Of a DNA stretch of 64,000 bases, positions 72 to 24,575 are shown in pieces. The stretch comes from an uncultured Nitrospirales bacterium. GTDB taxonomy: Bacteria > Hydrogenedentota > Hydrogenedentia > Hydrogenedentales > GCA-2746185. A program made the translations under genes and the position numbers. The DNA lies in assembly GCA_964620045.1 (NCBI GenBank), contig CAZUJL010000022.1:1498-65497 (forward strand). The letters are read 5' to 3'. How positions within the stretch are numbered: the first letter of the stretch is position 1; the number at the start of each line of letters is the position of its first letter. The notes beneath the pieces are model-generated. The model did not search any database. It was not told where the DNA came from and was given only the letters and a program-made list of their open reading frames with translations.

Positions 72-1781
72 ATGCGGATGTTCTCCACCGACCACAAAAC
101 CGTCGGCATTCAATACGCCCTCGCCGCGGCGTTTTTCCTGCTCGCCGGCCTCACCATCATCCTCCTCATCCGCTGGCAGCTCGCGTACTCCGGCGAGGCG
201 GTGCCCGTGCTCGGCCGGTTCATCAGCGCCGACAACCCGCACATGCCCGAAGGCAAGATGACGTCGACCTTCTACAACTCGCTCGGCGCGATGCACGGCA
301 CGATCATGGTCTTCCTCGCCGTGGTGCCGATGCTGACCGGCGCGTTCGGCATCTACCTCGTGCCGCTGCAGATCGGCGCGCCGGGCATGGCGTTCCCGCG
401 GCTGACGCTGCTCGGCTTCTGGGCGTATCTGCTCGGCGGGCTCACGATCCTCGCGAGCTTCTTCCTGCCCGATGGCCCCGCGTACTCCGGCTGGACCTCG
501 TATCCGCCGCTGTCCGTCATCGCGCCGGACGGGCAGACCGCGTGGCTCGTCGGAATGCTGTTCGTGATCGCGGCGTCCACCTTCGGCGCGGTGAACATGA
601 TCGCCACGATCATCCAACTCCGCGCGCCGGGACTTTCGTTCATGCGCCTGCCGCTGTTCGTGTGGGCGCAGTTCGTCGCGGCGTTCCTGCTGCTCACGGC
701 CTTCCCCTCGCTCGAGGCCGCGAGCCTGCTCCAGCTCTCCGACCGCCTGCTGGACACCAGCTTCTTCATGCCGAGCGGACTCGTCGTGAGCGGCGAGCAA
801 CTCGAATACACCGGCGGCGGGAGTCCGCTGCTGTGGCAGCACCTCTTCTGGTTCCTCGCGCACCCGGAGGTGTACGTGCTCGTGCTGCCCGCGATCGGCA
901 TCGTGGGCGAAGTGATCAGCAACAACACGCGCCGGCCGATCTGGAGCTATCGTGCGGCGGTCGCCTCCGTGCTCGCCGTTGGGTTCATGTCCTTCCTCGT
1001 GTGGGCGCACCATATGTTCCTCACGGGTATGGGCACGACGATGAACGCGTTTTTCGAGCTCACCACGATGATCGTGTCCGTGCCGTCGGTCGTGCTGCTC
1101 ACCGTCATGGTGGCCTCGCTCTGGGGCGGCGCCATCCGGTTCACCACGCCGATGCTGTACGCGCTCGCCTTCCTGCCGATGTTCGGCCTGGGCGGACTCA
1201 CGGGACTGCCGCTCGGCCTCGCGATGTCGGATATTTACCTGCACGACACCTACTACGTCGTCGGTCACTTCCACTACATCGTCGCGCCGGGCACGATATT
1301 TGCCATCTTCGCAGGCGTGTATCACTGGTTCCCGAAGATCACGGGACGGAAAATGAGCCACCTGCTGGGGCACCTGCACTTCTGGCCGACGCTGCTGTGC
1401 ATGAACGCGATCTTTTTCCCGATGCTGCTGCAGGGTTTCCACGGCGTGTCGCGGCGCTTGTATGACGGCGGGCTGAACTACGCGCACGCGCAAGACGTGC
1501 TGATCCTGAACAAGATCATGTCGCACTCGGCCTTCCTGCTCGCGGCTGTGCAGCTCGTGTTCCTCGCGAACCTCGCGTGGAGCTTCTTCTTCGGGAAGCG
1601 CGTCGAGCACAACCCGTGGGACGCGACGACGCTGGAGTGGACCGCGCCCTCGCCGCCGGTGCGCAGCGGCAACTTCGAGACCGCGCCGGCGGTGTACCGC
1701 GGGCCGTATGAATACAGCGTGCCCGGCGCGGCGCGGGACTTCAGCCCGCAGGCGCAGACCGACGGAGGCGCGCCGGCATGA
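72..1781 (+). CDS. ctaD: cytochrome c oxidase subunit I (haem-copper oxidase catalytic subunit)
   Basis: 569 aa polytopic membrane protein; N-terminal FSTDHKTVGIQY and His-rich motifs (HHMF, GHFHY) typical of CoxI; in-frame stop at 42-44 upstream, so start is 72 or shortly after; overlaps next gene by 4 nt. Confidence 0.9.
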   Translation: MRMFSTDHKTVGIQYALAAAFFLLAGLTIILLIRWQLAYSGEAVPVLGRFISADNPHMPEGKMTSTFYNSLGAMHGTIMVFLAVVPMLTGAFGIYLVPLQIGAPGMAFPRLTLLGFWAYLLGGLTILASFFLPDGPAYSGWTSYPPLSVIAPDGQTAWLVGMLFVIAASTFGAVNMIATIIQLRAPGLSFMRLPLFVWAQFVAAFLLLTAFPSLEAASLLQLSDRLLDTSFFMPSGLVVSGEQLEYTGGGSPLLWQHLFWFLAHPEVYVLVLPAIGIVGEVISNNTRRPIWSYRAAVASVLAVGFMSFLVWAHHMFLTGMGTTMNAFFELTTMIVSVPSVVLLTVMVASLWGGAIRFTTPMLYALAFLPMFGLGGLTGLPLGLAMSDIYLHDTYYVVGHFHYIVAPGTIFAIFAGVYHWFPKITGRKMSHLLGHLHFWPTLLCMNAIFFPMLLQGFHGVSRRLYDGGLNYAHAQDVLILNKIMSHSAFLLAAVQLVFLANLAWSFFFGKRVEHNPWDATTLEWTAPSPPVRSGNFETAPAVYRGPYEYSVPGAARDFSPQAQTDGGAPA

Positions 1782-2650
1782 GGGACCTGCTCGGCTTCCC
1801 GCTGGTCGCCTCAGAACACGGCGGCGCGATGACCAACTTCATCCTCGGCGTGCACGCGATCATGCTGGTCGTGTTTTTCGCCTGGGGCCTATGGTTCGTC
1901 ACCGCGCTCATCCGCTTCCGCGCGACGCGCAACCCGCACGCCGATCATCGCGGCCTGCGCACGCGCCTGCCCTACGCCGCTGCCGCTGCGCTCGCGCTCA
2001 CCGAAGCCGCGCTGCTCTTCGGCGTGTCGCTGCCGTTCTGGCACAAGACGATCGCGGCCGCGCCGGACCCCGCCCGCGAGGATGTATACGTCGTGCGCGT
2101 GATCGGCCAGCAGTTCCAGTGGAACGTGCACTATCCCGGCGCGGACGGCGTCTTCGGGCGCACGAGTCCGGCGCTGGTCGACGACGTGCTAAACCCGCTC
2201 GGTCTCGACAACGACGACCCCGCCTCGGCCGACGACATCACGACGCTGAACCAGTTGCACCTGCCGATCGGCAAGATCGCGCTGATTTATCTCGGCTCGA
2301 AGGACGTGATCCATAGCTTCTTTCTGCCGGAATTCCGCGTGAAGCAGGACGCAATCCCCGGCATGCGCGTGCCGGTGTACTTCACGCCGACGATGACCAG
2401 CGAGGAGTTCCGCGCGAAGATTGGAAATCCCGCGCGCGAGTTTGAGATCGCGTGCGCGCAGCTCTGCGGCATCAACCACTACACGATGCGCGGGTTCGTG
2501 ACCATTGAGACGCAGGAGCAGCTTGATGCGTGGTACGCCGCGCAGCTCGAGCAGAAGAAGGAGTACGCTGCGGACGACTGGTGGGTCGAGGCCGCGCCGG
2601 AAACTCTGCCACCGACGCCGGCGCCCGCCCCGGAACCGCAGCAACCCTGA
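1778..2650 (+). CDS. coxB: cytochrome c oxidase subunit II (CuA cupredoxin subunit)
   Basis: 290 aa; two N-terminal TM helices; DVIHSFFLPEFRVKQDAIPG and CuA ligand pattern CAQLCGINHYTM; no fused cytochrome c domain. Confidence 0.8.
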   Translation: MRDLLGFPLVASEHGGAMTNFILGVHAIMLVVFFAWGLWFVTALIRFRATRNPHADHRGLRTRLPYAAAAALALTEAALLFGVSLPFWHKTIAAAPDPAREDVYVVRVIGQQFQWNVHYPGADGVFGRTSPALVDDVLNPLGLDNDDPASADDITTLNQLHLPIGKIALIYLGSKDVIHSFFLPEFRVKQDAIPGMRVPVYFTPTMTSEEFRAKIGNPAREFEIACAQLCGINHYTMRGFVTIETQEQLDAWYAAQLEQKKEYAADDWWVEAAPETLPPTPAPAPEPQQP

Positions 2651-2750: not shown

Positions 2751-3764
2751 TCAGTTTCCGTTGGCTGCGCCTTCGGCTGGCTTCGCTTCGGTGGTCGCGG
2801 CCGGCTTGGCGACGAAGCCTTCGACTTCGAAAGGCGCGCTCCACTGCGTCTCGCCCCACACGAGGCGCACGATGCCGCCGTTGGCGGTTTGCTCCAGCTC
2901 AACCTTGAAGGTTTCCGCCGGTTCGGCAGGCTTGCCGGTTTCAAGCGCGACCTCGGCGGCGTCGGCTTCGGGGTTGTGCATCGTGCCCCACACGTCCGAC
3001 TCGCTATTGAAGATCAGGTTCCAGCCGGTGGCGGTCTTGCGCATCCAGAGGCTGTACACGCCGGGGTAGTCCGGCGCGACGTTTTCCTTCTTCACGACGC
3101 CCTGCGCGAACTTCATGTCCACGTCGGTCATCAGCTTCGTCGCGCGGCCGCCGACGAATTCGAACACTTCGCCTTCCTTCACTTCGCTCAGGCGCTTATA
3201 GTCTTCGTCGGCCGTCGCGAGCGGATGAAAGTTGACGCTTACTTTGTCGTCGCCGAAGCGCAGGCGTGCGGAGTTGGCGGCCATGCGACGATTGCGGCTG
3301 CGCGTCTCGCGGATTTCCGCGTCTTCACCGGCGGCAACCACGGCCGTGAACGGCGCGCTGAACAGGCCGCTGTCTTCGGCGAAGGTGCCTTCGAGGCCTT
3401 CGGCCGACGGCGTAGCCGTCACCGTGACCTGAAATTCCTGCTGCCCGAACTTCAGCGGATACTTGAGCACCATGTTGCCGCGCTCGTCGATCGAGACGTC
3501 TTCGATGGCCGTCGGCTCGGGCAACTGCGCCGAATCGATCGTGGCGCCGACTTTGCCTTCGAGATCGACGACAATCATGTTGAAATTCATCTGACGTCCC
3601 ATCATGTCGATGGTGACCGCCCAGTTACTGAGGAAATCCCGGGCTTCCGACGAATCGAGCTTCGTCGGCACCGGATCTTCGGCGACCACGGCGGGCGAAA
3701 CCGCCGCCATCATCGCCATCGCGCACACTGCCACCCATTGCCACCCTTGAAATCCCGCGCGCAT
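2751..3764 (-). CDS. secreted protein with C-terminal DUF2911-like domain (paralogue of 27568..28263)
   Basis: 337 aa, N-terminal signal peptide; C-terminal about 110 aa (ENVAPDYPGVYSLWMRKTATGWNLIFNSESDVWGTM...WGETQWSAPFEV) clearly homologous to the 27568..28263 product (ENVAKGYAGVYSLWIKKTADGWAFVFNQKPDVWGTM...WGAHQWSAKFAI); family name from memory, unverified. Confidence 0.5.
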   Translation of the reverse strand: MRAGFQGWQWVAVCAMAMMAAVSPAVVAEDPVPTKLDSSEARDFLSNWAVTIDMMGRQMNFNMIVVDLEGKVGATIDSAQLPEPTAIEDVSIDERGNMVLKYPLKFGQQEFQVTVTATPSAEGLEGTFAEDSGLFSAPFTAVVAAGEDAEIRETRSRNRRMAANSARLRFGDDKVSVNFHPLATADEDYKRLSEVKEGEVFEFVGGRATKLMTDVDMKFAQGVVKKENVAPDYPGVYSLWMRKTATGWNLIFNSESDVWGTMHNPEADAAEVALETGKPAEPAETFKVELEQTANGGIVRLVWGETQWSAPFEVEGFVAKPAATTEAKPAEGAANGN

Positions 3765-3917
3765 GCTCAGACACCCTCTTTGCGTTCGCCGCTGCGGGCG
3801 AACCCAGTCTGCAAGCCAAGGCCCGGCGCAGCGCCGGGCACGTACCCTTAAAGATTATCGGGAGGGACCCGGTTTATGGCCGAATCCCTCCCCGGAACGC
3901 AACTATACGTCACCGGT

Positions 3918-5171
3918 TCAGTCGCCGGGGAACTGCACATCCTTCTTCGGCGCGACGGTCATCCAGGCAAGGTCCATTTCGTCGGTGGTCGGACCGCCGA
4001 AACGAATCGCTTCGCTGGAGTCGAAGCCCGCGGCCGCGCCGCGTTCGTCGGAGTTGTCGTACCAGAATTCCATTTCGACGCGCGTACCGGCCGGCAGAAT
4101 CTTGTGCTCGGCGTAGTCGTAGCCCGTCTGCCAGTTAAAGTCCCACGCCGGAACGTGCAGAAGCTGTTCCGAGGTGCCATCCGGATAGAACGCGGTGTAC
4201 TTCGCTTCGGTACCGCGCAGGTGCATGTGCGGCAGCATCGAGAGCACGATCGTGTCTTCGTCGAAGGTGTGCGACGCGCCAACTTTCCAGTGCTTCGCGT
4301 GCGGCGGAATTTCAAACGAGCCGTGGGCGACCGGGAAGATATTGACCGGGTGCGTGACTTTCGCGCCCTCGGGGTGGAACTGGAGACCGATCTGCGAGCT
4401 GTCCCACTTGCCCGTGCCCGGGCCGGCTTCCTTGTGATAGTGCATCGCGAAGGTGATCGCGGAGCCCTTCTTGAGCTCGATGCCGTAGCCTTCCGGCCAC
4501 TGCGACTGGTCCGCGCCCGGCGCGTTGCCGCCCAGCATGCCGCGGCTGGTTTCGCCGGCATGTTCCTTGGAGTTCGCGTGACCGATGATATGGTGCACCA
4601 CGTCGCTACCCGGCTTGAATTCAATGCTGCGAATCCAGCGATCGTTCGGAAGCTGCTCTTCGGTGAGCTGCGTGGTGATGTTTTCGTAAAGGTCCTGCAC
4701 CTCGTCCTTCACGAAGAAGGGCTTCGGGAAATCGACGACGAGGTCCGGCTGACCGAAGTTCCAACCCGTCTCCGAGAACTTAATCGGGGCGGGGGCATCC
4801 TGCGGATTGCCGCGCTTGGCACCCTGCTGGACCCAGTCGGTCAAGGTCTTGATCTGTTCGGCGGATAGCGTGCGCTCGTTGCTGAACACGCCGTGGTATT
4901 CCTCGGACGCGTCCCACGGCGGCATCACCTTTTCGTTCACCGCCTTCACCATTGCCTTTGCCCACGGACGAACTTCCTCGTAGGTCATCAGCGACATCGG
5001 CGCGACCATGCCCGAGAGATTGATGCCCGAGGGGCGGTGGCAGGTCTGACATTTTTCCTGCAGGATCGGCAGCACGTCCTTGGTGAACGTGATTTCCGCC
5101 TGCGCGGCGCCCGCGAACGATGCGCCGACCAGCGCAGCGCCCAGAGCGACTTTCTTCGTGAGGTAGTGCAT
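3918..5171 (-). CDS. secreted mono-haem cytochrome c fused to PHM/DBH-like type II copper monooxygenase domain (paralogue 1 of 4)
   Basis: Signal peptide from ATG at 5171 (GGGAGA RBS 6 nt upstream; ORF track extends to 5237); CQTCH haem motif plus MPPW; then VHH ... MHYHKE ... HMHLRGT ... TDEMDLAWM, matching the CuH (H,H,H) and CuM (HxH,M) ligand order and spacing of peptidylglycine alpha-hydroxylating monooxygenase; FNWQ motif shared by all four paralogues. Confidence 0.6.
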   Translation of the reverse strand: MHYLTKKVALGAALVGASFAGAAQAEITFTKDVLPILQEKCQTCHRPSGINLSGMVAPMSLMTYEEVRPWAKAMVKAVNEKVMPPWDASEEYHGVFSNERTLSAEQIKTLTDWVQQGAKRGNPQDAPAPIKFSETGWNFGQPDLVVDFPKPFFVKDEVQDLYENITTQLTEEQLPNDRWIRSIEFKPGSDVVHHIIGHANSKEHAGETSRGMLGGNAPGADQSQWPEGYGIELKKGSAITFAMHYHKEAGPGTGKWDSSQIGLQFHPEGAKVTHPVNIFPVAHGSFEIPPHAKHWKVGASHTFDEDTIVLSMLPHMHLRGTEAKYTAFYPDGTSEQLLHVPAWDFNWQTGYDYAEHKILPAGTRVEMEFWYDNSDERGAAAGFDSSEAIRFGGPTTDEMDLAWMTVAPKKDVQFPGD

Positions 5172-5245: not shown

Positions 5246-5641
5246 TCAGTATTCGCTGATCACGCTCATTCGAATCACGTTAGCGCCCTTGGCCGTGTAC
5301 TTGAGTCCTTGGACGGTGACCTTCTTGCCGACATATTCCGCGACGAACTTATTTGCCAATTCCAAATGGGAGGCCGGCGCGTTGTTGCGGTAGACGGCGA
5401 TCCAGACTATGCCGGTCTCGTCTTCGAGAATGCCGACGGGGAATCCTTCCTCGATGCGCGCCTTGTGCGCGGCCACGAGCTCGGGCGTGTAGCCCTGCAT
5501 CGCGTAGGTACCAAGTTCGATAACGTCTCCGACGATGATGCCCTTCTCACCTTTTGGTGCCGCATCCTGCGCGAACACCCATGCACCCGCGGTGAGAGCC
5601 ATCGCCGCACAAACGAACACAATCGCGTACTTGCGCTTCAT
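5246..5641 (-). CDS. small secreted hypothetical protein
   Basis: 131 aa with signal peptide; sits between the monooxygenase paralogue and the giant cytochrome in a same-strand tightly spaced array. Confidence 0.4.
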   Translation of the reverse strand: MKRKYAIVFVCAAMALTAGAWVFAQDAAPKGEKGIIVGDVIELGTYAMQGYTPELVAAHKARIEEGFPVGILEDETGIVWIAVYRNNAPASHLELANKFVAEYVGKKVTVQGLKYTAKGANVIRMSVISEY

Positions 5642-5881: not shown

Positions 5882-8800
5882 CTACGGCTGTTTTTTCACC
5901 GGAAACAGTGCTTTTATTTCCCGCACATTCCCGGCCAATTCGTCGAATCCTGCCTGCACCCGCGGCGCGTCTGCCGTGTCGCCTGCGCGGTCGATTTTGT
6001 TGACCGTCCGGTTCACGGTGCCCAGCATGTATTTCAGCCGGCCTTTCTGCCGCGGATCGACGCCCGTTGTTTCCGGTTTCGAGAGCGCCGCGACCAGATC
6101 GGCGATATCGAGCGCCGGCTGATAGAGCGTGTACCAATCCTTGGCCGCGATGCGCGCGCGCAGGTCTTCTTGTTTAAGATCGATTAGCGCAAGAATTTCC
6201 GGCGCCGTGGCGGGAATTAGCAGCGGCGGGCGGAAGTGGCTGTGCGTCGGCGGCACCCCCGGAGCACCGGGGACGCCCGGCGTCGCCATGCCGGGCATTC
6301 CGGGCATGGCCGACGCGGACGGCGCACCGCCGGTGTCGACCGTGACCTGATCGAACTCAAAGTCGAAGCGTTTGTCGACACCGCCGAGTTTGACGAGCGC
6401 ATACAAGGTCGACGGCATCTGCGGCGGCACGACGGCCATCAAGTAGTCCGCGCCGGGCCGGATCAACTGGAGTTCGTAGACGTCTTCCGTGACTTCGCCG
6501 GTCTTCTCGTTCAGATGTTCGATGCGCGCAGTGCCGGTGAAGTTGCGCGGATCGATCGGACGGCGGAAGTCGTCGTAGAAATACACGCGGAACTCACCGG
6601 GGCTCGGCATGGTGCCTTCCACGTGGTGGAAGAGATTGTCCGCCATGTGGAATTGACCGCCGTGGATTGGATTGTGGTTCATGTGCGCGACGGCGGTGTT
6701 CAGCGCGATCGCGGGATCGATCGTCACCGCGTCGAAGTTGAACGTGAAGGCTTCGCGCTTGCCGCCGATCCACACGCCGGCCTTCACTTCGAGTGGCGTC
6801 GCCGGAGAAACATACGCCACCAGACTTTCGGGCGATTGTGTGTCCCGACTCATCGGCAGCTTCTTGCCGTCCAGTTCAATTTCCGCCGCGAACAGACCGG
6901 GATCAACGGGATGTTTCCACGCGTCGTAGAAATACAGGCGAAGTTCGCCCGGATGCGGCAAGGCGGCTTCGACGTAATGGAAACCGTCGGCGGAGGGATA
7001 GATTTCAGGACTGCCGTGCGGGCCGAGGACGATGGCCTGTTTCGGGGTTGCGTCGGTGGCCGGGTCCCACGGTTCTTCGCTGATTTCGTCAAACTCGAAC
7101 TCGATCGACTGCTTCCCCGTGCCGATGGCGAGTGTGACACGCGTCTTCATCGGCAATTCAGGATTCACTTTCGCGGCGAGGTACTCCGCGCGCGGCGACG
7201 GCACTACGAGGGCGATCGGCGTTCCCGCGGATGACTGCGGGCTGCCGCCGAGCACTTCGGCCTGCGCCGTGAAACCACGCGGATCGATCGGTTGCAAGTT
7301 GGGACCGTAAAAATACAACCGCAGATCGCCGGGCGCCGGCAACGCGGCTTCGACGCGATACTCGGTGCCTTCGATCGCTTCGAGCCAACCACCGTGCGGC
7401 GGTTCGGTGAAACCCTGCTTGGCGGCCGGGTCTTGTGACGCCGCGGGCGGCGTAGGCCCGTTGAACGTGAAGTCGAAGGCTTCTTCCTCGCCGCCGAGCA
7501 AGACCTTGGCGGTAAGCGTTTGCGGAAACACGGGATCCAGCCAGGCGGAAAGGTGATCGTCGCCGGGCAGGAACTGCGTCAACGGCACACTGCGCGCGCC
7601 GCCGTCCACCAGAAGTTCCGCTTTGAAATTGCGCGGATCGATTGGCGCCATACGGTCGTCATAGATGTACAGCGAGAACGCGCCGGGCCGCGGCATTGTG
7701 CCTTGCACTTGGTGGTAGCCATTCTTCGCGATGCGGATACGCTCCGGCTCCTGCGGCACGTCGATGGTCTCGGCGACCGCCTTGGTGGTTTCCGCGACCG
7801 TGCGGCCACCGCCCAGTGCGTCGACGATTTCACCGCCGATGCCGCCCAGCATGCCGCCGCCTTGTTGCGGCTCCTTGGTCACGACGACGGGCGTGAGCTT
7901 GAGGTGATCGTCGAGCGTGTAGTGGAAGTACATGTACAGCCGCTCGTCGAGATAACCCGGACCGGTCTTCACATCTTTTGGCGGACTGTTCGGATTCGAC
8001 TCGTTCGCCTCGGTGTTGTCGAGGTAGCTCGTCAGCACGAGCCGCGCGCCCTGCGGGGCGGCGACCGGCTCTGCGAAGCGATAACTCGTCGCCCACCGTT
8101 GCTGGTATCTCGGCACCCACGCGAGCGTGCGTTCGATGCCGTCGGGATAGAAGATTTCGATCTTAAGCTGCGTCGCCACGGGCCCCGCATGCGGCTCGAT
8201 GGCGAGCAGGTGCGTGTTCTCGGTGAACACATACTCCACTTTCTTCTGCACTTTCTCGCCCACCTTCACCGCAAACGCGGGCGCTTCGGCGAGACGCGAT
8301 TCGACCATCAAATCGAACTCTTCGTTGGGCGCGGCGAGGAACAGGCCGAGGCGCGTGTTGTCGCGGATTTCCTGCGACCAATCGGCCCACTCGGGGCGGA
8401 CGTATTCGACACGCAGTTCGATGCTCGAGCCTTTGTACAGCTTGCGGCCGGCGGTTTGCGGATACATCACCGGGCCATCGCCCTTCACCCACTGGCCGAG
8501 GAAATGCGGACCGGCGGGCATGGGACGCATGCGCGTGATCTCGCGTTCTTTTTCGGTCGCGTAGGGATCGTAGGCGCCCTTGACCTCCATCTCGATCGCG
8601 GGCGGCTGGAAACCTTCGGGATCGTGGAGCCACGCGGTGACGCGGGCGACGTTTTGCGGATTGCCGACCAGAAATTCGTAGCCGGTGATGTAGGTATCCG
8701 CGGGAACATCGACGGCGATGAGGGCTTCGGCCGAATCGTAGACCTTGTCTTTCGGCACGACGTGGCCCTGCGGCAATGCGACGATCAGACCGGGCGCGCC

Positions 8801-9259
8801 CAGCGACCATGTAGGCTCGGCGAATTCCTCCGGCGGTGGCAGATTGCGGTATGGGCCTTGGGGACCACCGCCGCGAATCCAGGCAATGACCATGTCTTTT
8901 TCTTCGCTCGTTAGCGCGCGCGAGTTTTCGAAATGGCCGAAGCGATCGTCCGCGTTCCAGGGCGGCATGCGGCCGAGCATGATCTCGTCTTCGATCTGGG
9001 CGGCCCATGCGCGTGCGCCGGGCTTTGTATCGGTACCGTAGACCGTTAAGTCCACGTAATCCGGCGCGAGGCCGCCGGGGTGGTGGCAAGGCATGCACTT
9101 CTGGATGAAGATCGGCCGGATGGTCTCGCTCCAGGTAACGTCGGTGGTAATCCTGGTGTGGGCGGAGGCCGGAATCGGCGCGATATACAAGGAAAGGGCT
9201 GCCAAGCCCACTGCGGCGAGGGCGATGGCCGTCAAAATCAGGAATTTCGGTCGTTTCAT
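5882..9259 (-). CDS. large secreted cytochrome c with four internal YFYD repeat domains (about 115 aa each)
   Basis: Start at ATG 9259 (MKRPKFLILTAIAL signal peptide); N-terminal CMPCHHPGG ... MPPW module homologous to the N-terminal module of the four monooxygenase paralogues; four repeats each containing P-x-PGE(L/F)R(L/V)YFYD ... P(I/V)DP(R/G)(N/G)F and ending in F-(D/T)-F-(T/E)-F. Confidence 0.6.
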   Translation of the reverse strand: MKRPKFLILTAIALAAVGLAALSLYIAPIPASAHTRITTDVTWSETIRPIFIQKCMPCHHPGGLAPDYVDLTVYGTDTKPGARAWAAQIEDEIMLGRMPPWNADDRFGHFENSRALTSEEKDMVIAWIRGGGPQGPYRNLPPPEEFAEPTWSLGAPGLIVALPQGHVVPKDKVYDSAEALIAVDVPADTYITGYEFLVGNPQNVARVTAWLHDPEGFQPPAIEMEVKGAYDPYATEKEREITRMRPMPAGPHFLGQWVKGDGPVMYPQTAGRKLYKGSSIELRVEYVRPEWADWSQEIRDNTRLGLFLAAPNEEFDLMVESRLAEAPAFAVKVGEKVQKKVEYVFTENTHLLAIEPHAGPVATQLKIEIFYPDGIERTLAWVPRYQQRWATSYRFAEPVAAPQGARLVLTSYLDNTEANESNPNSPPKDVKTGPGYLDERLYMYFHYTLDDHLKLTPVVVTKEPQQGGGMLGGIGGEIVDALGGGRTVAETTKAVAETIDVPQEPERIRIAKNGYHQVQGTMPRPGAFSLYIYDDRMAPIDPRNFKAELLVDGGARSVPLTQFLPGDDHLSAWLDPVFPQTLTAKVLLGGEEEAFDFTFNGPTPPAASQDPAAKQGFTEPPHGGWLEAIEGTEYRVEAALPAPGDLRLYFYGPNLQPIDPRGFTAQAEVLGGSPQSSAGTPIALVVPSPRAEYLAAKVNPELPMKTRVTLAIGTGKQSIEFEFDEISEEPWDPATDATPKQAIVLGPHGSPEIYPSADGFHYVEAALPHPGELRLYFYDAWKHPVDPGLFAAEIELDGKKLPMSRDTQSPESLVAYVSPATPLEVKAGVWIGGKREAFTFNFDAVTIDPAIALNTAVAHMNHNPIHGGQFHMADNLFHHVEGTMPSPGEFRVYFYDDFRRPIDPRNFTGTARIEHLNEKTGEVTEDVYELQLIRPGADYLMAVVPPQMPSTLYALVKLGGVDKRFDFEFDQVTVDTGGAPSASAMPGMPGMATPGVPGAPGVPPTHSHFRPPLLIPATAPEILALIDLKQEDLRARIAAKDWYTLYQPALDIADLVAALSKPETTGVDPRQKGRLKYMLGTVNRTVNKIDRAGDTADAPRVQAGFDELAGNVREIKALFPVKKQP

Positions 9260-9354
9260 TACTGCATTTCCCCGGTTTCCAATTGGATCTGAACCCAAAT
9301 ATACGGGTCGGGGTTCCCGAAATTCATGTTTCGCCGCGCGGGGCGGCCAGATTG

Positions 9355-13076: not shown

Positions 13077-13244
13077 ATGATCCCGCGCTGCGTGTCCCTT
13101 CATATCCCTCTATATAGCTGACCGCTCGTTGCACTCGCTGGAAACACTGGTTGCGGGACAAGGGGTCAAGCGGCGGGACGCCGCTTCCACATTAGGGGCG
13201 CGAAACAAGGGGTTTTGAAATTCTGGTTTTGCGAAGTTCAGATA

Positions 13245-15227
13245 TTAAGGCGCAGTTACGCCGATTCGGGCGATGCCGTTGACGGATTGGATTGTCATGG
13301 CTTTGTCGATGGTTGGGGTTTCGGCAGATTCGGCATCGGCGGTGTCACCCTTGATGTTGATGGTGCCGCCAGAATCTATAAGGGTGATCACCTCGGTCAA
13401 TGTATTGAAGGGGTGAGTTTCGATCCCGGCTTCGGGCCCAATCGCGGCGAAGTCGATCCACATGATGTCGGTGGGCGGGAAACTGGCGGCGTTTAGAACG
13501 CCGGTGCCGGCAGCGACCTCTCCACCGTCTCCGAAGCCATCGCCGTCGGTATCGAATAACAGCGGGTTGATGCCGAAAACGCTTTCGACCAGATTGCTGA
13601 GGCCGTCGCCGTCGTAGTCGTTTTGGCCGTCGGCGACTCCGTCTGGACTATTCGCGCCGTTGTTGCCGGTGGTGTCGCCGAGGAAGGCATCAAAGGGATT
13701 TTGGACTCCGGGCGTACCCGGATCGAGGTCTACTGATTCTACGGCATCGGATACGCCATCACCATCGGTGTCGGTTTCAGAAGGTGCGCCGAAACTTGAT
13801 GCGCTGATGGGGTTGTAGCCGAAAGTGAACTCGTCTTCGTTGTTCATGCCGTCGTTGTCCCAATCGTTCCAGCCGTCGATGAGGCTGTCGGACGCGGTGA
13901 CGAAGTTGTCGGAGGTGGAGTCGGCGTTTGATGGGTTGAAGGGGTTTTGCGTTCCGGAAATTGCGGAGTCGAGATCGCGGGTTTCGTCATTGTCGGCAAT
14001 GCGATCGTTGTCGGTGTCCGGGCCACGACCGACGCCGGATAGAATTACTGTCCTTGTACCTGACGAGGCCCCGCTGTAAGGAATGCTTAGAGAAGCCGTT
14101 CGAAGGCCAGAAGCAGATGGCTCGAATCGAACTACGATGTTGCGAACAGATCGTCCGGCGACTGTTCCACTGCTACCTCCACTGAGTATGGCGAAATCAC
14201 TTGCGTGGGTTCCGGAGATGCCAATAGAAGAGACCGACAGGGAACCTATCTGCAAATTCGCAAAAACAACTGTACGTTGTTGACCTAATGAGCTGGGGCT
14301 CGCAGCAGGAAAAACAACAACCTGTGGCGCCAGTGGCGAATTGACTTGCCAACCCAAGTCCCTCATTACAGGAACGCTGAGATCAAGATCGTTAAAGAAG
14401 GCGAACCCGGGCACCGTTTTTTGCATAAGCAAAACCGGTGAATGAGCTGTATGCCAATGATGAACAACTTGTTGCAAATCAGGATGAGTGTGAACCATGG
14501 GAAGAGTACCGAAATCCGTGGAGATTACCCCGGGGCCACCATGAGCGCCGGCAAACGGTGCTGTTGTGGTTCCTCCAAAAAAGATATCACCCAGTTGCAT
14601 GGCGTCAAGGCGAAAGCCGCCATTTGTAGCCGGGCTAGAGGTTACAAATGAATCAAAAATACTTCCATCATCTGCGAAGCCAACAAATAGTCGTTGATCG
14701 TAAATGCTTGGAATGTTTCCTCCAAACAGTCCGTTGGACGTAGTCACTCTCGAACGAAATCCAAAACTATGCCCGAGCTCATGTAGCGCAACAGTCACGA
14801 AATTAGTCAAGCTAAAATCACCAGCGCCATCGAGTTTAAAATAAAAATTTTCTCCAGTATGAAATCGGACACGGGCATGGTAGCCGATATAGTCACCCGT
14901 ACTTGGGGTATAGTTTTCGTCGTCTATTTGACTCGCCAAAGCCGCTGGATATCCTATATCTGGCAAGCCATTGATAGTCAGAAACTCCTGTGTGGGCCGA
15001 CCTTCCCCTGGAGGAGAATCGATGGCAGATAAATCCTCAAACGAGGCGTGAATTTTAATAGGAATCGTTCCTTCCAACGACCGCTCCCATATTTTCATCG
15101 CATGTTCGAAAGCTATTTTCGCCTCATCTGGAAATGGGCCGAAATAGTCTGCAGACATAACAGCCTGTCCACTGACTGGAACACAAATCAGGAGCGAGAG
15201 CACGAAGCTGAGGTGCCTTACAAACAT
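13245..15227 (-). CDS. secreted zinc metalloprotease (HExxH) with C-terminal thrombospondin type-3-like calcium-binding repeats
   Basis: Signal peptide; VALHELGHSFGF zincin motif; C-terminal Asp-rich repeats DTDGDGVSDAVE, DYDGDGLSNLVE, DTDGDGFGDGGE; 5' catalytic-domain portion of the gene lies in the low-GC patch. Confidence 0.6.
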   Translation of the reverse strand: MFVRHLSFVLSLLICVPVSGQAVMSADYFGPFPDEAKIAFEHAMKIWERSLEGTIPIKIHASFEDLSAIDSPPGEGRPTQEFLTINGLPDIGYPAALASQIDDENYTPSTGDYIGYHARVRFHTGENFYFKLDGAGDFSLTNFVTVALHELGHSFGFRSRVTTSNGLFGGNIPSIYDQRLFVGFADDGSIFDSFVTSSPATNGGFRLDAMQLGDIFFGGTTTAPFAGAHGGPGVISTDFGTLPMVHTHPDLQQVVHHWHTAHSPVLLMQKTVPGFAFFNDLDLSVPVMRDLGWQVNSPLAPQVVVFPAASPSSLGQQRTVVFANLQIGSLSVSSIGISGTHASDFAILSGGSSGTVAGRSVRNIVVRFEPSASGLRTASLSIPYSGASSGTRTVILSGVGRGPDTDNDRIADNDETRDLDSAISGTQNPFNPSNADSTSDNFVTASDSLIDGWNDWDNDGMNNEDEFTFGYNPISASSFGAPSETDTDGDGVSDAVESVDLDPGTPGVQNPFDAFLGDTTGNNGANSPDGVADGQNDYDGDGLSNLVESVFGINPLLFDTDGDGFGDGGEVAAGTGVLNAASFPPTDIMWIDFAAIGPEAGIETHPFNTLTEVITLIDSGGTINIKGDTADAESAETPTIDKAMTIQSVNGIARIGVTAP

Positions 15228-15241
15228 AGGAAATCCTTGGA

Positions 15242-16954
15242 CTATTGTTCCAATGACGGCAATGCAACGGCACCGTTTGGACGAACCAAAAAGCGTTCGT
15301 GAGCATGCTGAACTGGTGTAACGCGATAACCCCGCAACGGAAGGGCGGGACTGCCACTTACATCTACATATGGCCAGAACAAACCGGACTCACTTTTTGA
15401 GTCTGATACCAACCGGCCTTCGCGATCCGTGGTAGCGATCACTTCACTCAACGGCAATGTGCGTTGCAGGTAGATTGATTTGTCGCCTCGCCGTACAATC
15501 CAGATGATTCCAAGTTGTGGCTGGTCGGTTTGTTTTGGCATGACATAGGATCCATCGGATAGTTCGATGAGCCAACCAATCGTTCCGTCTGGTTTTATAA
15601 GAGGCTGTCTCGCTCTTGCGGATATTGGAAATACCACTTCATCGGCAGGAACGGGCCTTACGCCTTGCGCGTCTCGATACGGCCATATGTCATATTCGAA
15701 AGGCAGTGTTTGGTGCTCGGATTCTTCGAGATCGACAATGCCTGTGGATCGAATCGAGGCATATCGGCCGTTCTCCAATTTGCCACTGTGCTCAAGAACA
15801 AGCTCGTTGTCATCTAAATAAGAAACCAGATAATGAGCGTCGCCGACTTGAACGGTGTCGCGAATACCAACAAGTTCCCCATGTTTTCCTAAATATGCTC
15901 TTGAAAGCAGGTAATTTCGGCTCCAAGAGAGACTGATGATCCCAGGATGCAAGCGCGTTGGCGTTTGCGACATGTATCGTCCGGCGTTCATCCATTTAGC
16001 GACAGGCCGAGGCGGCAAGGCTGCTCCAACTTCGCTAAGACTGGCTACGGCGAAAGCAATGCGGCTCTGTTGGCATGTAGGTTCCACTTCATCCACTAGT
16101 GGCGAGTTGGTGAGGTTGCGTAGATTCATTCCAGCGACGGACGTCGAGTAGATGTCGAAATCGCCAGCGCGATCTGACGCAAACAGGACCGACTGGCCAT
16201 CTGGAGACCAGACTGGATCCCTGTCTTCACCTGGATGATCTGTGATTTGCGTTATCTCGCCCGTAGAAGGATTCAGAATATAGATATCGCCGAAGCCGAG
16301 TGTGTTTCCACGTGCAACAATACGAGTTCCGTCTGGTGACCATGCGGGTTGAGTTAGGAAAACAGATCTCTTTATGGAAATTGGTGTCAGCCCCTCTTTA
16401 TTTGCGTGTGAAAGAACATATGCTCGTTTGCGTTCTTCCATTGATATAGTGAGGGAGGAAACAATCAGCTCAGAAGTCGTTGGGGAAATGGCTGGATCAA
16501 ACACCGGGATTGATGCACTCACCATCAGTAATGGAGCACCACTCGTCAAACTCTGACCCATTACCACTGCATCACGTATGCTTTTGCCCATGGACACGAA
16601 GGCTATACCTCCTCCATCCGGTGTCCAGACGGGCTTTATCTCGTTACTTTCGGCATCTTTCGTAAAACGGCGGTTGTCCGATCCGTCTATGTTCATCAGC
16701 CATATGTCGAAGCCACGGCCATCGTCGCGGGCGTAGGCGATTTGTTTGCCATCGGGGGACCAGGCAGGTTGCTGTACGATGGATTTTCCGTCGGTGAGGC
16801 GGACGCGATTGGTGCCGTCGTCGTTCATGGTGTAGATGTCGTAAACGTACATTTGCTGCGCGGCGGCGAGTTGCGCGAGTTGGGCGTGGGCGCGCGGCAA
16901 CAACGTAGCGGACGCCAGAATCACAAGCGGAAACAAGGATTTGCATAGTCGCAC
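15242..16954 (-). CDS. secreted TolB-like beta-propeller (PD40 repeat) protein with uncharacterised C-terminal domain
   Basis: Signal peptide; repeated WSPDG motifs (PAWSPDGKQIAY, VWTPDGGGIAF, PAWSPDGTRIV, PVWSPDGQSVLFASDRAGDFDIY); C-terminal about 270 aa with no recognised motif, encoded in the low-GC patch. Confidence 0.55.
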   Translation of the reverse strand: MRLCKSLFPLVILASATLLPRAHAQLAQLAAAQQMYVYDIYTMNDDGTNRVRLTDGKSIVQQPAWSPDGKQIAYARDDGRGFDIWLMNIDGSDNRRFTKDAESNEIKPVWTPDGGGIAFVSMGKSIRDAVVMGQSLTSGAPLLMVSASIPVFDPAISPTTSELIVSSLTISMEERKRAYVLSHANKEGLTPISIKRSVFLTQPAWSPDGTRIVARGNTLGFGDIYILNPSTGEITQITDHPGEDRDPVWSPDGQSVLFASDRAGDFDIYSTSVAGMNLRNLTNSPLVDEVEPTCQQSRIAFAVASLSEVGAALPPRPVAKWMNAGRYMSQTPTRLHPGIISLSWSRNYLLSRAYLGKHGELVGIRDTVQVGDAHYLVSYLDDNELVLEHSGKLENGRYASIRSTGIVDLEESEHQTLPFEYDIWPYRDAQGVRPVPADEVVFPISARARQPLIKPDGTIGWLIELSDGSYVMPKQTDQPQLGIIWIVRRGDKSIYLQRTLPLSEVIATTDREGRLVSDSKSESGLFWPYVDVSGSPALPLRGYRVTPVQHAHERFLVRPNGAVALPSLEQ

Positions 16955-17193
16955 GATATTGCCCCCTACCTGTACTACATTAGTGATCAGTTATTCAGAA
17001 ATGTCAAGGTGATGGTTAGAATATCCGTTACACGCGGAGGGTTGCAGATTTGGCGGGGCGGTAGTTTCGTGCTAAGTTCTTAGCGTGTCGACGTTTATAC
17101 GATGGAATGGGCGGCCATTTGTAACCCTTTCGGGGGAATTGCTCACTATTTGTACAGAGTGGCATGCGTTGAGCCGTTTAGGCCGAGGCGGTC

Positions 17194-17754
17194 GTGGATT
17201 CGGTTAGTGGCGAGGACCGCCGGGACATTGAGGCGAGCCTGCGCGGCGATGAGCGCGCGTATGCCCGGCTGGTGGATCGTTACCAAAGTTTAATCGCAGC
17301 GCAGATGTGGCGTTTCACGCGCGATCCTGTAGTTGTAGAGGAGCTCGTGCAGGAGGCGTTTGTCGAGTGTTACCTCGGCTTGGCGAAGTTTCGCGGGCAG
17401 TCGCCGTTTTTGCATTGGATTCGGCGGATCGCGACGCGGGTCGGGTATCGGCATTGGAAGATCAAGGCGCGCGACAAGCGCAAAGAAGATGCGTTGGCGC
17501 AGGAGCCGCGGCCGGACGTGCAAGCGCCGGCGGACCCGGCGCCGGCGGAAGCGGCCGCGTGGTTGCAAGGGATCTTGGCGCAGTTGCCGCCGGAAGATCG
17601 GTTGGTGCTGACGCTGCACTATTTTGAAGATTTGGATATGAACGGCATCGCGCAGCGGATGGGTTGGACGCGATCGCTGGCGAAAGTGCGCGCGTTTCGG
17701 GCGCGGAAGCGCCTGCGCGCGCTGTTGAAGGAGGCAGGGTATGACGAATTTTGA
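17194..17754 (+). CDS. ECF-type RNA polymerase sigma factor (sigma-70 family)
   Basis: 186 aa, GTG start; region 2 (YARLVDRYQSLIAAQMWRFTRD ... EELVQEAFV) and region 4 HTH (LTLHYFEDLDMNGIAQRMGWTRSLAKVRAFRARKRLR); preceded by an AT-rich intergenic region. Confidence 0.8.
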   Translation: MDSVSGEDRRDIEASLRGDERAYARLVDRYQSLIAAQMWRFTRDPVVVEELVQEAFVECYLGLAKFRGQSPFLHWIRRIATRVGYRHWKIKARDKRKEDALAQEPRPDVQAPADPAPAEAAAWLQGILAQLPPEDRLVLTLHYFEDLDMNGIAQRMGWTRSLAKVRAFRARKRLRALLKEAGYDEF

Positions 17755-19607: not shown

Positions 19608-20957
19608 GTGAAGCTGCGATCCACGATGGGATGGTGTGCGGGATTTGCCGCGCTGACGGTGACGATCGGCGCGTGGGCGGCGGATGCTCCCGACGGCGCG
19701 CGGAAGATCACGTTTACGAAAGACATCCTGCCGATTCTCCAGGAGAACTGCCAGGAATGTCACCGGCCGGGCGGCGACACGGTCGCGGGCGTGGGCGCGC
19801 CGATGGCGTTGATCACGTACGACGAAGTGCGGCCGTGGGCGAAGGCGATGGCCGAGAAAGTGACGGCGAAGGAAATGCCGCCGTGGGACGCGACGGACGC
19901 GACGCACGGACTATTCGTCAACGAGCGCAGCCTGTCGGCGGAGCAGATCGATACATTCGTGAAGTGGGCGGCGAGTGGCGCGGCTCGCGGCAACCCGAGC
20001 GATGCGCCGCCGGTGAAAGAATTGGCGGACAACGACGGCTGGGTGATGGGCAAGCCCGATCTTGAAGTTTATTTGGAAGACCCGTATTGGGTGAAAGACG
20101 AGATTGTCGACATTCAACCGATGTTCCAGATCAAGATTACGAAAGAGATGCTGCCGGAGCCGCGCTGGATTCAGGCGGCGGAGTGCCGCCCGGCGACGTC
20201 GATGGTGCATCACACGTTCAGCACCGTAACGGCGCCCGCGGTGGAAGGGCATCCGGAGGAAATGTTTGCGCTGGTGTCCGCGGCGGCGGGTGAAGATCCG
20301 CAGCAGTTCCCGGACGGTTTCGGCAATCTGCTGCGGCCGGGTTCGGTGGTGAATATTTCGATGCACTACCACAAGGAGCCGGGACCGGGCACGGGCAAGT
20401 GGGACCGCTCGGGCGTGGGCATCAAGTTTTATCCGAAGGGCCGCGAGATTGAGCACAAGGTGAACTGGGGCCCGATCGGCGACAACGGCATCGGGAACGC
20501 GGGCTTCGAAGTGCCGCCGAATCACGCGAGCTGGCCGGTGGGCTGGAGCGGAACCTTTGATGACGACACGCTGCTGCTGTCGCTGCACCCGCACATGCAT
20601 TACCGCGGCAAGAGCATGACGTACACGGCGTATTACCCCGACGGCACGACCGAAATGCTGCTCGACGTTGACCGGTATAACTTCGCGTGGCAGACGATTT
20701 ACTTCTATAAACAACCGAAGCTCATTCCGGCGGGTACGCGCATTGACGCGATCGCGGTGTTTGATAATTCGGAAAGCGCGAAGGCCGCGTGGCCGGAGAT
20801 CGATACCTCGCAGCCGGTGCGGTTCGGCGAGGCGTCGACGGACGAGATGATGATCCCGTATGTGTCGTGGACGCATGCTGACCCGGTTGCGGGGCAGGCG
20901 TATCGCGACAAGAACATGGCGCACCGCAAGCGGGTGCTGACGGAAGGCGTGGAGTAA
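19608..20957 (+). CDS. secreted mono-haem cytochrome c fused to PHM/DBH-like copper monooxygenase domain (paralogue 2 of 4)
   Basis: GTG start with GGGAGA RBS 6 nt upstream (alternative ATG 19626); CQECH plus MPPW; MVHH ... MHYHKEPGPGTGKWD ... HPHMHYRGK ... FAWQ ... STDEMMIPY. Confidence 0.6.
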   Translation: MKLRSTMGWCAGFAALTVTIGAWAADAPDGARKITFTKDILPILQENCQECHRPGGDTVAGVGAPMALITYDEVRPWAKAMAEKVTAKEMPPWDATDATHGLFVNERSLSAEQIDTFVKWAASGAARGNPSDAPPVKELADNDGWVMGKPDLEVYLEDPYWVKDEIVDIQPMFQIKITKEMLPEPRWIQAAECRPATSMVHHTFSTVTAPAVEGHPEEMFALVSAAAGEDPQQFPDGFGNLLRPGSVVNISMHYHKEPGPGTGKWDRSGVGIKFYPKGREIEHKVNWGPIGDNGIGNAGFEVPPNHASWPVGWSGTFDDDTLLLSLHPHMHYRGKSMTYTAYYPDGTTEMLLDVDRYNFAWQTIYFYKQPKLIPAGTRIDAIAVFDNSESAKAAWPEIDTSQPVRFGEASTDEMMIPYVSWTHADPVAGQAYRDKNMAHRKRVLTEGVE

Positions 20958-21013: not shown

Positions 21014-21108
21014 TCCGTACACTCGGATTGAATGCGGATGGGTGTTGATACCGGCCGGAAGGTCGCGATATCGTGTTGCGGCTGAGTTCTGGAGGTCATT
21101 CCCGGTCT

Positions 21109-21855
21109 ATGAAGTACGCGATGTTGTTCGTGTGCGCGGCGAGTTACATTTTGTCAGGCGCGGCGGTGGCGGCCGAGCCGCGTCAGCCCGGCGAGAATGC
21201 CGAGGCGGCGGCGGTGAAGAATCCGCACGAGGCGAATGAGCAGTCGATTCAACAGGGTAAGCTGCAGTATGAGCGCTACTGCGTGACGTGCCACGCGCTG
21301 GACGGATCGGGCAAGACGGACATGACGGAGATGCTCGATGTGCCGCCGCAGACCTTTGCGGACAACGAGTGGAAGTATGGCAAGACCGATGGCGAGCTGT
21401 TCAGCGTAATCAAGGATGGCGGCCAGAACGGCATGCAGGGTTTCGTCGGCAAGATTCCCGACGATCGGATTTGGCACGTGATTAATTATATCCGGACTTT
21501 TTCGAAGGCGGGTGAAGGCGACGCGGGCGCGGCGGTGGCGGAAACGGACGTGCCGGAGAACCCGATCGCGACGTCACCGGAATCGGTGGCGCTGGGCAAG
21601 CAGTACTACGCTCGATTCTGTGTGAAGTGCCACGGATTGAATGGCCGGGGCGATACGGAGATGCGCGAATTTTTGAGCACGCATCCGAGTGATTTTACGG
21701 ATGGCGAGTGGAAGTACGGCAACAAGGACGGCAATATTTTTAACGTCATCAAGAACGGCACCGAATACGACATGACGGCCTTTAAAGACACCGTGGACGA
21801 CGAGAAAATCTGGCACATGGTGAATTATCTTCGGAGCTTCGAAAAGAAAAAATAG
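21109..21855 (+). CDS. secreted dihaem c-type cytochrome
   Basis: Start at ATG 21109 (GGAGGT RBS upstream); signal peptide; two CxxCH motifs (CVTCH, CVKCH), each followed by a repeated module ending WH(V/M)(I/V)NY(I/L)R(T/S)F. Confidence 0.8.
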
Positions 21856-23962: not shown

Positions 23963-24469
23963 ATGGCTGCGAAGACAAAGCGGACAGCAAAAACTAAACC
24001 TGCGAAAGATTATGTGGGCGTGGTGCGGGAGTTGTTGGCGCCGCTTGCGCAGCGCGGGGTCATCCGCAGTCTGGATGAGCGCACTGTTCGCGGGAAGACT
24101 GAGTTCCGGTTCATGTGGCTGCTGGATCGGCGATTCACGATGGTGTTCGATCCGGAGAACGGGAAAATCACGTTGAAGGATTTGTTGCCGAACGTTTCGG
24201 TGAAGTCGGATGTGGCGGAGGCCGTGCGCGGATGGGTCGCGGGTCGCGCCGAGAAGTCGCTGCCTCCCCACCGCCGTCTCGATCCCGCCAAAATTACCGC
24301 GCAGGTGTCCGTGCGCGGCGACATGCTGAGCATCGCGTTCGACGTGAAACGCAACCAGTACGCCTACGCCGTGCCCAAGGTGCTGAACTTCTGTAACGAA
24401 CTTTTTGGGCACCTCAGCATGTACCAGGTCCAATATATGTGGGCGCACATGGGTTTGCCGGAAGAGTAG
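23963..24469 (+). CDS. hypothetical protein
   Basis: 168 aa, Lys-rich N-terminus, no recognisable motif. Confidence 0.3.
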   Translation: MAAKTKRTAKTKPAKDYVGVVRELLAPLAQRGVIRSLDERTVRGKTEFRFMWLLDRRFTMVFDPENGKITLKDLLPNVSVKSDVAEAVRGWVAGRAEKSLPPHRRLDPAKITAQVSVRGDMLSIAFDVKRNQYAYAVPKVLNFCNELFGHLSMYQVQYMWAHMGLPEE

Positions 24470-24487: not shown

Positions 24488-24575
24488 GCCGTCCCTACGG
24501 GACTGATTGGGTGATGCGGGCATGGACCCCGGCGTTGAAACGCCGGGCTACTATCATCTGCCCCTCCGGGGCAAT
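24488..24575. repeat. structured intergenic repeat element, copy A (three hairpins)
   Basis: Shares cgtccctacgggact (hairpin gtccc-tac-gggac) and a terminal gcccctc(c/t)ggggc hairpin with a second copy at 41470-41558, at nearly identical spacing (69 vs 71 nt); the central hairpin differs in sequence but not in structure (ccccggcg-ttgaaa-cgccgggc here). Confidence 0.5.

Follow-up and report, generated by a model that had tools for sequence, protein, structure and literature searches.

Conserved pairing of exported DUF2911 proteins with predicted haem-fused copper monooxygenases

Peptidylglycine alpha-hydroxylating monooxygenase (PHM), dopamine beta-hydroxylase (DBH) and tyramine beta-monooxygenase represent the non-coupled binuclear copper monooxygenases. 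To our knowledge, enzymes of the PHM/DBH type are known almost solely from eukaryotes, where their products are amidated peptides and catecholamines. Here we describe a predicted bacterial counterpart whose genes stand, in two loci, directly upstream of genes for DUF2911 proteins. Both loci lie in a 64-kb stretch of contig CAZUJL010000022.1, called the window throughout, and the closest relatives bear Hydrogenedentota names. MO1 to MO4 denote the monooxygenase paralogues of the window, and DUF_A and DUF_B its two DUF2911 genes. The adjacency lies far beyond chance, and the two families co-diverge.

The monooxygenase family shares with PHM, DBH and tyramine beta-monooxygenase a predicted core of two beta-sandwiches, together with the order and spacing of the ligands. 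It differs from PHM and DBH in being bacterial and periplasmic, in carrying an N-terminal c-type haem fusion and in scoring below the curated Pfam cut-offs. In further contrast to these enzymes, it is massively paralogous, with five copies in 64 kb (MO1, MO2, MO3, MO4 and the N-terminus of the 1138-residue protein BIG), and has no sequence-level relative in the PDB. Accessory beta modules are familiar from redox enzymes, as the DOMON domain of DBH and of cellobiose dehydrogenase-type cytochromes is a beta-sandwich attached to such an enzyme. DUF2911 may be likened to DOMON as an all-beta, non-catalytic module associated with a PHM/DBH-type core. However, it is a separate polypeptide encoded downstream, conserves no haem ligands and gave no Foldseek match to DOMON.

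Lytic polysaccharide monooxygenases (LPMOs) offer a second comparison. Fungal AA12/AA8 pyranose dehydrogenase drives LPMOs (PMC5960967), and bacterial LPMOs are reduced by a c-type cytochrome (PMC8981238). Like these electron-supply systems, the second window locus (module B, below) combines a copper oxygenase, a cytochrome and a dehydrogenase dependent on pyrroloquinoline quinone (PQQ), here encoded together and all exported. The oxygenase of module B is PHM-like, however, and its cytochrome is fused to it, whereas LPMO systems have no DUF2911-like component. For electron supply to the window oxygenase by cytochrome or PQQ dehydrogenase, the LPMO precedent may serve as an analogy only.

Literature searches on DUF2911, the copper monooxygenase Pfam domains, bacterial PHM/DBH, and Hydrogenedentes with monooxygenase, PQQ and cytochrome c turned up no account of the family or of the pairing. 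For DUF2911, a single paper emerged, in which a Sphingobacterium member is listed in a secretome table (PMC4666044). We rate the core as resembling PHM/DBH enzymes and the DUF2911 partner as previously unrecognised. The bacterial version has more than 6000 detectable homologues (at least 6131 matches at E ≤ 0.001 out of 8000 scored candidates), its own haem domain for electron entry and a strong paralogue expansion. DUF2911 gains a first functional context through its dedicated pairing with a monooxygenase, and the conserved pair is a defined two-protein system for expression work. A PQQ dehydrogenase, a cytochrome c and an exported thiamine diphosphate (ThDP)-dependent enzyme nearby provide testable guesses on electron supply and pathway. 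If the partner does set substrate specificity, this would explain how one scaffold gave rise to many paralogues in Hydrogenedentota and Acidobacteriota.

The two paired families

The paired genes and their immediate neighbours are as follows.

2751-3764, minus strand: DUF_A, an exported two-domain protein of 337 amino acids (aa) with a signal peptide (Pfam PF11138; AlphaFold2 (AF2) model; 94 homologues)
3918-5171, minus strand: MO1, public gene call of 417 aa, with signal peptide, monohaem cytochrome c domain and PHM/DBH-like copper monooxygenase core
24809-26131, plus strand: MO3, ligands intact; its stop overlaps the MO4 start (ATGA, 26128-26131)
26128-27453, plus strand: MO4, the paralogue directly 5' of DUF_B; its AF2 model matches DBH and PHM
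27583-28263, plus strand: DUF_B, an exported short form with signal peptide, low-complexity linker and DUF2911 domain (Pfam, 48.7 bits)
28260-30281, plus strand: PQQ-dependent dehydrogenase, beta-propeller (Pfam PF01011, E 1.5e-184), with an alternative start at 28218

An earlier note on this DNA had placed a DUF2911-like gene directly after MO1 on the minus strand, and the open reading frames (ORFs) are as it described, on the same strand and 153 nucleotides (nt) apart. Its account of the second locus stands with one correction. DUF_B does follow MO3 and MO4 on the plus strand, about 130 nt after the end of MO4, and does overlap the PQQ dehydrogenase ORF, but the start given at 27568 is less well supported than ATG 27583. 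Within an ORF spanning 27493-28263 (plus strand), this ATG is preceded by GAGGA and agrees with the public gene call of 226 aa; it is the most plausible DUF_B start judging from these signals, with 27568 as a possible alternative. All partner proteins, DUF2911 and monooxygenase paralogues alike, have signal peptides and are hence exported. The homology that had been noticed between the C-terminal domains of DUF_A and DUF_B was confirmed (41% identity over 152 aa, E 2e-40) and includes the motifs YPGVYSLW, GW, FN, DVWGTM and WG.

Alignment of 17 monooxygenase family members leaves C41, C44, H45, M83, H193, H194, H244, H315, H317 and M399 (MO1 numbering) invariant. The equivalents in a second alignment (n = 51), namely CxxCH, MPPW, HH, H, HxH and M, are likewise invariant. 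CxxCH and MPPW together suggest a c-type haem site with a probable Met ligand. In PHM and DBH, the CuH site is formed by three His and the CuM site by two His and a Met, in the order HH..H and then HxH..M. The family alignments carry the same succession, His-His...His as in CuH and His-x-His...Met as in CuM. The third His and the HxH motif are 71 residues apart, compared with 70 in PHM (H172 to H242). We infer the equivalence to the PHM copper ligands from order and spacing rather than from a residue-level structural alignment.

For MO4, the structure predicted by AF2 has a predicted local distance difference test score (pLDDT) of 80.9 and a predicted template modelling score (pTM) of 0.80. 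It shows the two-domain beta-sandwich catalytic core of PHM and DBH. In Foldseek searches against the PDB, its top 31 matches are all DBH or PHM (probability 1.00, E 3.5e-11 to 9e-9), with human DBH (4zel) and rat PHM (1phm and others) among them. Curated profiles stay below their thresholds. Cu2_monoox_C (PF03712) reaches 16.3 bits on MO3 and 19.1 bits on MO2 against a cut-off of 23, a precomputed PF03712 match is present in few homologues, and a Pfam scan gave no match of Cu2_monooxygen (PF01082) to the window monooxygenases. Pfam Cytochrom_C scores 18.7-20.1 bits on these proteins, just short of its cut-off of 21.3. NCBIfam returned sub-threshold SoxX-like haem matches only, and homologues carry the Joint Genome Institute (JGI) label 'mono/diheme cytochrome c family protein'. 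PDB sequence searches with MO1, DUF_A and the profiles A1 and A2 gave no meaningful match.

The label 'monooxygenase' is treated here as one that derives from fold and ligand pattern without a curated family match. Likewise, we treat the family as belonging to the PHM/DBH structural superfamily, in a periplasmic version from bacteria that is fused to cytochrome c and whose activity is predicted. Because a haem c domain is fused to the core, the reductant is probably a cytochrome chain rather than ascorbate.

DUF_A and DUF_B belong to Pfam DUF2911 (PF11138), a family without assigned function, by the curated threshold: against a gathering score of 27 bits they reach 49.3 bits (E 6e-13) and 48.7 bits (E 9e-13), respectively. 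NCBIfam has no family for either protein. Among 126 representatives of the subfamily, 125 match DUF2911 and contain no further domain that Pfam finds; in the remaining one, DUF2911 is fused to cytochrome c. This protein, P0260 (P-numbers designate DUF2911 homologues, L-numbers loci from other genomes or metagenomes), has 355 aa, is encoded at positions 401-1468 of L175 (GCA_016178795.1) and joins a short DUF2911 form to a monohaem cytochrome c. Its gene lies 38 nt past an MO4-like gene fragment, and the next gene encodes a ThDP enzyme 59-65% identical to the product of 21887-23839.

The AF2 model of DUF_A (pLDDT 89.7) comprises an N-terminal beta-barrel module at about 38-143 (a helix and nine strands), a basic helix at 149-162 and the all-beta DUF2911 domain at about 165-314. 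A descent of the N-terminal module from a diverged DUF2911 copy was ruled out (hhalign probability 0.7%), and a search with this module alone returned no homologue. The order helix, nine strands, helix over residues 38-162 of the predicted structure is compatible with a calycin fold. Foldseek matches of DUF_A include FABP5 (5bvt), SAHS (5xn9) and Can f 1 (8epu), with template modelling scores on the target of 0.50, 0.46 and 0.33; their probability is about 1.0 but their E values are 0.07-0.08, and the aligned DUF_A domain is not shown in the output.

Across 53 homologues, K210, N228, Y233, G235, Y237, W240, W248, N253, D257, W259 and G304 are invariant. No His, Cys or Met is invariant or nearly so in the alignments of 53 and 126 sequences, and the metal-ligand residues expected of chaperones of the PCuAC, CopC or Sco type are absent from the conserved columns. 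An exhaustive search with the C-terminal domain gave 608 cluster representatives (E ≤ 0.001). In nearly all of the best 150 of these, the DUF2911 domain sits at or near the C-terminus behind zero to three N-terminal modules; the extra module is missing from proteins of 200-240 aa, single in those of about 310-330 aa, double at about 445 aa and triple at about 565 aa. No fusion of monooxygenase to DUF2911 occurs among the same 150, the longest of which has 567 aa. In soil metagenomes (L138, L142, L149 and L154), the pair takes a third form, a monooxygenase followed by an exported protein of about 400 aa. In this protein the C-terminal half is a match to DUF2911, while inspection by eye suggests a second, degenerate copy of the domain in the N-terminal half.

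Conservation and co-divergence of the pair

The neighbourhood was surveyed from both families. On the monooxygenase side, 80 loci were picked solely by monooxygenase similarity, one genome per species (1.29 Mb). A DUF2911 gene is present in 16 of them. In 15 of the 16 it is the next gene downstream of the monooxygenase on the same strand, and in one (L043) it is a divergent upstream neighbour; the 1.29 Mb hold no DUF2911 gene at any other position. Under random placement within those loci the binomial P is about 3e-16, a value that overstates the case since the loci are phylogenetically non-independent. Among 106 downstream ORFs, DUF2911 is the commonest family (20 clustered, plus L070), followed by another monooxygenase (12), and every remaining family accounts for four at most.

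On the DUF2911 side, a metagenome scan was evaluated at informative loci, meaning those with sufficient upstream sequence to judge. The next gene upstream, on the same strand, encodes a monooxygenase in 14 of 21 loci with the long, DUF_A-like form and in 11 of 22 with the short, DUF_B-like form, together 25 of 43. The linkage marks this subfamily as against distant DUF2911 proteins, where the count is 1/14. Every one of the 26 DUF-anchored adjacent cases has the same order and strand, with the monooxygenase first. Of nine long-form homologues located on long contigs, seven have a monooxygenase upstream. The enrichment that the earlier note would have expected is present from both sides (15/80 and 25/43 adjacent).

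The pair also occurs bare, with all other neighbours exchanged. It is flanked by an acetyltransferase and a glycosyltransferase in L008, lies beside sugar-metabolism genes and a MatE transporter in L009, and beside STAS, PhoD and sulfatases in L091. Adjacency by historical accident, in which neighbours were co-inherited in one lineage with no functional meaning, would be favoured by the orthology of many loci and their origin in one phylum (Hydrogenedentota-like metagenome-assembled genomes), so that independent events are overcounted. Yet the flanking contexts of the pair number eight or more, its carriers span two or more phyla going by their record names (Hydrogenedentota, with Acidobacteriota for L043 and L070), a divergent form occurs in soil, and the gene order is kept while partner identity drops to 30-40%. 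We regard such an accident as scarcely credible.

Beyond the bare pair, the two window loci belong to larger arrangements. Module A consists of s131, MO1 and a long DUF2911 gene; in close relatives it is preceded by g674 and BIG and faces cytochrome oxidase genes. Module B consists of a dihaem cytochrome c, a ThDP enzyme with a twin-arginine translocation (Tat) signal, g168, MO3, MO4, a short DUF2911 gene and the PQQ dehydrogenase, and it recurs in L024, L026, L033, L049, L060 and L124.

When the monooxygenases are arranged by neighbour joining, the MO1 clade is followed almost throughout by long forms and the MO4 clade without exception by short ones. The monooxygenase sub-clades reappear in the tree of DUF2911 (Mantel r 0.84, with 0 of 2000 permutations as high), and paralogues within one genome each retain their own partner type. 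The pair thus duplicated, or diverged, as a unit and has stayed linked. The earlier note had treated the two loci as independent and argued from repeated pairing to a functional partnership. Independence has to be given up, as the loci are two ancient paralogous modules. The argument for a partnership is strengthened by enrichment, bare pairs and co-divergence, and a linkage kept since duplication is better evidence of a functional link than two independent re-pairings. The link is drawn because the bare pair persists in unrelated contexts and because the families co-diverge paralogue by paralogue.

The other genes of the two modules, and the unpaired MO2, are listed below.

5246-5641, minus strand: s131, a 131-aa exported protein with no family match, upstream neighbour of MO1-type genes
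5882-9298, minus strand: BIG, exported, 1138 aa, comprising a haem c motif, a domain resembling the monooxygenase but without copper ligands, and tandem repeats of about 115 aa
9355-11379, minus strand: g674, 674 aa, no family match, syntenic with BIG in close relatives
19608-20957, plus strand: MO2, ligands intact, no DUF2911 neighbour, followed by a strong terminator and then the dihaem cytochrome c gene
21073-21855, plus strand: g260, dihaem cytochrome c, weakly similar to PedF/MoxG-type acceptors of PQQ dehydrogenases
21887-23839, plus strand: TPP650, ThDP-dependent enzyme with twin-arginine signal, syntenic with module B in other genomes
23963-24469, plus strand: g168, 168 aa, no family match, syntenic with module B

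The s131 gene stands directly upstream of MO1-type genes in L011, L012, L013, L015, L095, L099, L115 and L127, distant loci included. BIG retains a CMPCH haem motif and has lost the copper ligands (HH to LH, HYH to EYV, HMH to HAG, EM to ER); its tandem repeats carry an HGG...YFYD...P.DP..F signature. TPP650 belongs to the acetolactate-synthase superfamily, below all NCBIfam cut-offs, and is probably exported given its signal SRRDFIK. At the low-coordinate end of the window, the genes for subunits I and II of cytochrome c oxidase follow each other in this order with an overlap (72-2650, plus strand) and are convergent with DUF_A. This arrangement is kept in L001, L003, L005, L007, L011, L095, L097 and L099.

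Possible roles of the DUF2911 partner

What is firmly supported is an exported haem-plus-copper oxygenase, as judged by fold and ligands, and a non-catalytic beta protein free of metal ligands, the two being kept together and co-diverging. Beyond this, we propose, with a confidence that is about evenly balanced, that DUF2911 proteins are exported non-catalytic accessories of specific periplasmic copper hydroxylase paralogues, binding or presenting substrate or taking up product. As regards contact between the proteins, bound ligands, the path of the electrons and the class of substrate, the proposal is our inference.

In the proposed sequence of events, the haem c domain of the monooxygenase would take electrons from periplasmic cytochromes or dehydrogenases and pass them to a PHM/DBH-type copper pair (His3 and His2Met), which would activate O2 and hydroxylate the substrate. 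The DUF2911 partner would bind the substrate or the hydroxylated product and present it to the monooxygenase. Each partner would have diverged along with its own enzyme, the long form with the MO1 type and the short form with the MO4 type. In the second locus, DUF_B might then hand the product on to the PQQ dehydrogenase of the overlapping gene. A binding role is suggested because DUF2911 has no catalytic or metal residues, an invariant set of aromatic and polar residues and a variable number of N-terminal barrel modules, and because its gene is placed between a monooxygenase and an alcohol-type PQQ dehydrogenase.

A more ambitious version makes DUF2911 proteins specificity or substrate-presenting subunits which, together with the PQQ dehydrogenase, the dihaem cytochrome c and the Tat-exported ThDP enzyme, would make up a self-feeding route in the periplasm, acting on a substrate that is recalcitrant or hydrophobic. 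Such a route would run through C-H hydroxylation and alcohol oxidation, return electrons to the monooxygenase haem and proceed to C-C cleavage. We consider it decidedly doubtful.

The same neighbours feed the main rival, a docking or adaptor role for DUF2911 within an electron-transfer assembly of the periplasm. As a subunit of it, DUF2911 would keep a cytochrome c or the PQQ dehydrogenase at the haem domain of the monooxygenase and would bind no substrate. P0260 is a natural fusion of this kind, joining DUF2911 to a monohaem cytochrome c between an MO4-like gene (38 nt) and a TPP650 orthologue, and its haem domain resembles the dihaem cytochrome of the window. The overlap of DUF_B with the start of the PQQ dehydrogenase gene is conserved, PQQ dehydrogenase genes recur close to members of the monooxygenase family, and g260 weakly matches PedF/MoxG acceptors. 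Paralogue-specific co-divergence is compatible with a protein-protein interface as well. However, the cytochrome fusion is found in only one of the 126 representatives, PQQ dehydrogenase genes are missing from module A and from the bare pairs, and a variable number of N-terminal modules is more usual for binding modules than for a fixed adaptor. Docking therefore seems unlikely to us, although it is the strongest competitor.

A looser connection is conceivable as well. The two proteins would share a periplasmic pathway or regulon without ever coming into contact, either at different steps on one compound or in a stress- or envelope-related capacity, and their adjacency would reflect co-regulation and co-inheritance only. 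In its favour, hairpins lie in the spacers between the paired genes.

3860-3892, minus strand: GC-rich hairpin between the MO1 stop and the DUF_A start, 13 pairs, weak T tail
27477-27506, plus strand: hairpin between MO4 and DUF_B, 12 pairs (8 GC), TTCGTTTGG tail

Both sit right after a monooxygenase stop, and their tails are only moderately T-rich. The module-A hairpin keeps its position, with a different sequence, in L001, L003, L005, L011, L012, L013, L015 and L016; no stable hairpin was found in the monooxygenase-DUF2911 spacers of L008, L009 and L018. Comparable hairpins lie 3' of s131, MO2 and the ThDP enzyme gene. Neither window spacer between monooxygenase and DUF2911 yielded a sigma-70-like promoter. 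The hairpins may act as leaky terminators or as stabilisers, and so set stoichiometry, or they may mark true unit boundaries. The wider clusters, with cytochrome c, exported ThDP enzyme, PQQ dehydrogenase and cytochrome oxidase, are syntenic too, and each family is also found alone, as a shared pathway without contact would allow. Against it stand the strict order and strand (26 of 26 DUF-anchored and 15 of 16 monooxygenase-anchored cases), the persistence of this order though all other neighbours change, and a paralogue-specific matching that exceeds what regulon membership would lead one to expect. We think this explanation improbable, to much the same degree as docking.

Copper delivery was among the functions raised in the earlier note, beside substrate delivery and a regulatory subunit, and metallochaperone accessory genes do often adjoin copper enzyme genes. 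In such a scheme, DUF2911 would be a chaperone that loads the CuH and CuM sites, and its export along with the monooxygenase would fit. The family has no invariant or near-invariant His, Cys or Met in either alignment, however, and PDB sequence and Foldseek searches found no solved copper protein resembling it. The chaperone reading was rejected on residue conservation and is, in our estimate, very improbable; the suggestion of copper delivery is disfavoured accordingly.

Several observations weigh against the proposal of a substrate- or product-binding accessory. Sixty-four of the 80 monooxygenase loci, as well as MO2 in the window, are without a DUF2911 neighbour. Conversely, long-form P0075 and P0078 stand alone, as do both short-form homologues checked (P0079 and P0092), and in L098 a long DUF2911 gene comes straight after s131, without an intervening monooxygenase. 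Because each family also occurs without the other, the partnership is not obligatory for either. The mirror-tree signal is partly shared species phylogeny, and the invariant aromatics of DUF2911 could simply be core residues. Given the terminator-like hairpins, the paired genes may be transcribed separately or at different levels.

Start and stop overlaps add a further point of this kind. MO3 and MO4 overlap by ATGA, whereas DUF_B and the PQQ dehydrogenase overlap by 4 nt (GTGA, 28260-28263) if the latter starts at GTG 28260 and by 46 nt if it starts at GTG 28218; this second overlap is conserved in L024, L026, L060, L124, L125 and L128. Such overlaps suggest translational coupling inside the MO3/MO4 pair and inside the DUF_B/PQQ dehydrogenase pair, and the second locus reads as MO3 = MO4, hairpin, DUF_B = PQQ dehydrogenase. 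On the sequence, DUF_B is thus coupled more tightly to the PQQ dehydrogenase than to MO4.

Further features of the window

The Rfam family Acido-Lenti-1 (RF01687) scores above its gathering threshold at 24528-24573 (plus strand), in the spacer 5' of MO3, and at 41511-41556 (plus strand). Relatives contain it as well, at 17306-17351 and 17456-17501 in L001, at 13996-14041 and 16713-16767 in L003 and at 8026-8071 in L095. A role as a leader of the cluster was rejected, given that the sites in relatives are other intergenic ones and the element is absent 5' of orthologous MO3 genes. From its distribution, it behaves like a dispersed element in the lineage.

Two further segments differ in composition from their surroundings. 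About 4 kb at 13100-17200, with 48-51% G+C compared with 62%, are missing from the otherwise syntenic L001 and are probably an acquired insert. On its minus strand this segment encodes secreted proteins of 660 aa, with DxDxDG calcium-type repeats, and of 570 aa, by eye of the TolB/PD40 type. Directly 3' of the PQQ dehydrogenase gene, an ORF of 272 aa (30321-31139, plus strand) is without its neighbours' codon bias towards G+C at third positions (GC3) and has no meaningful family match.

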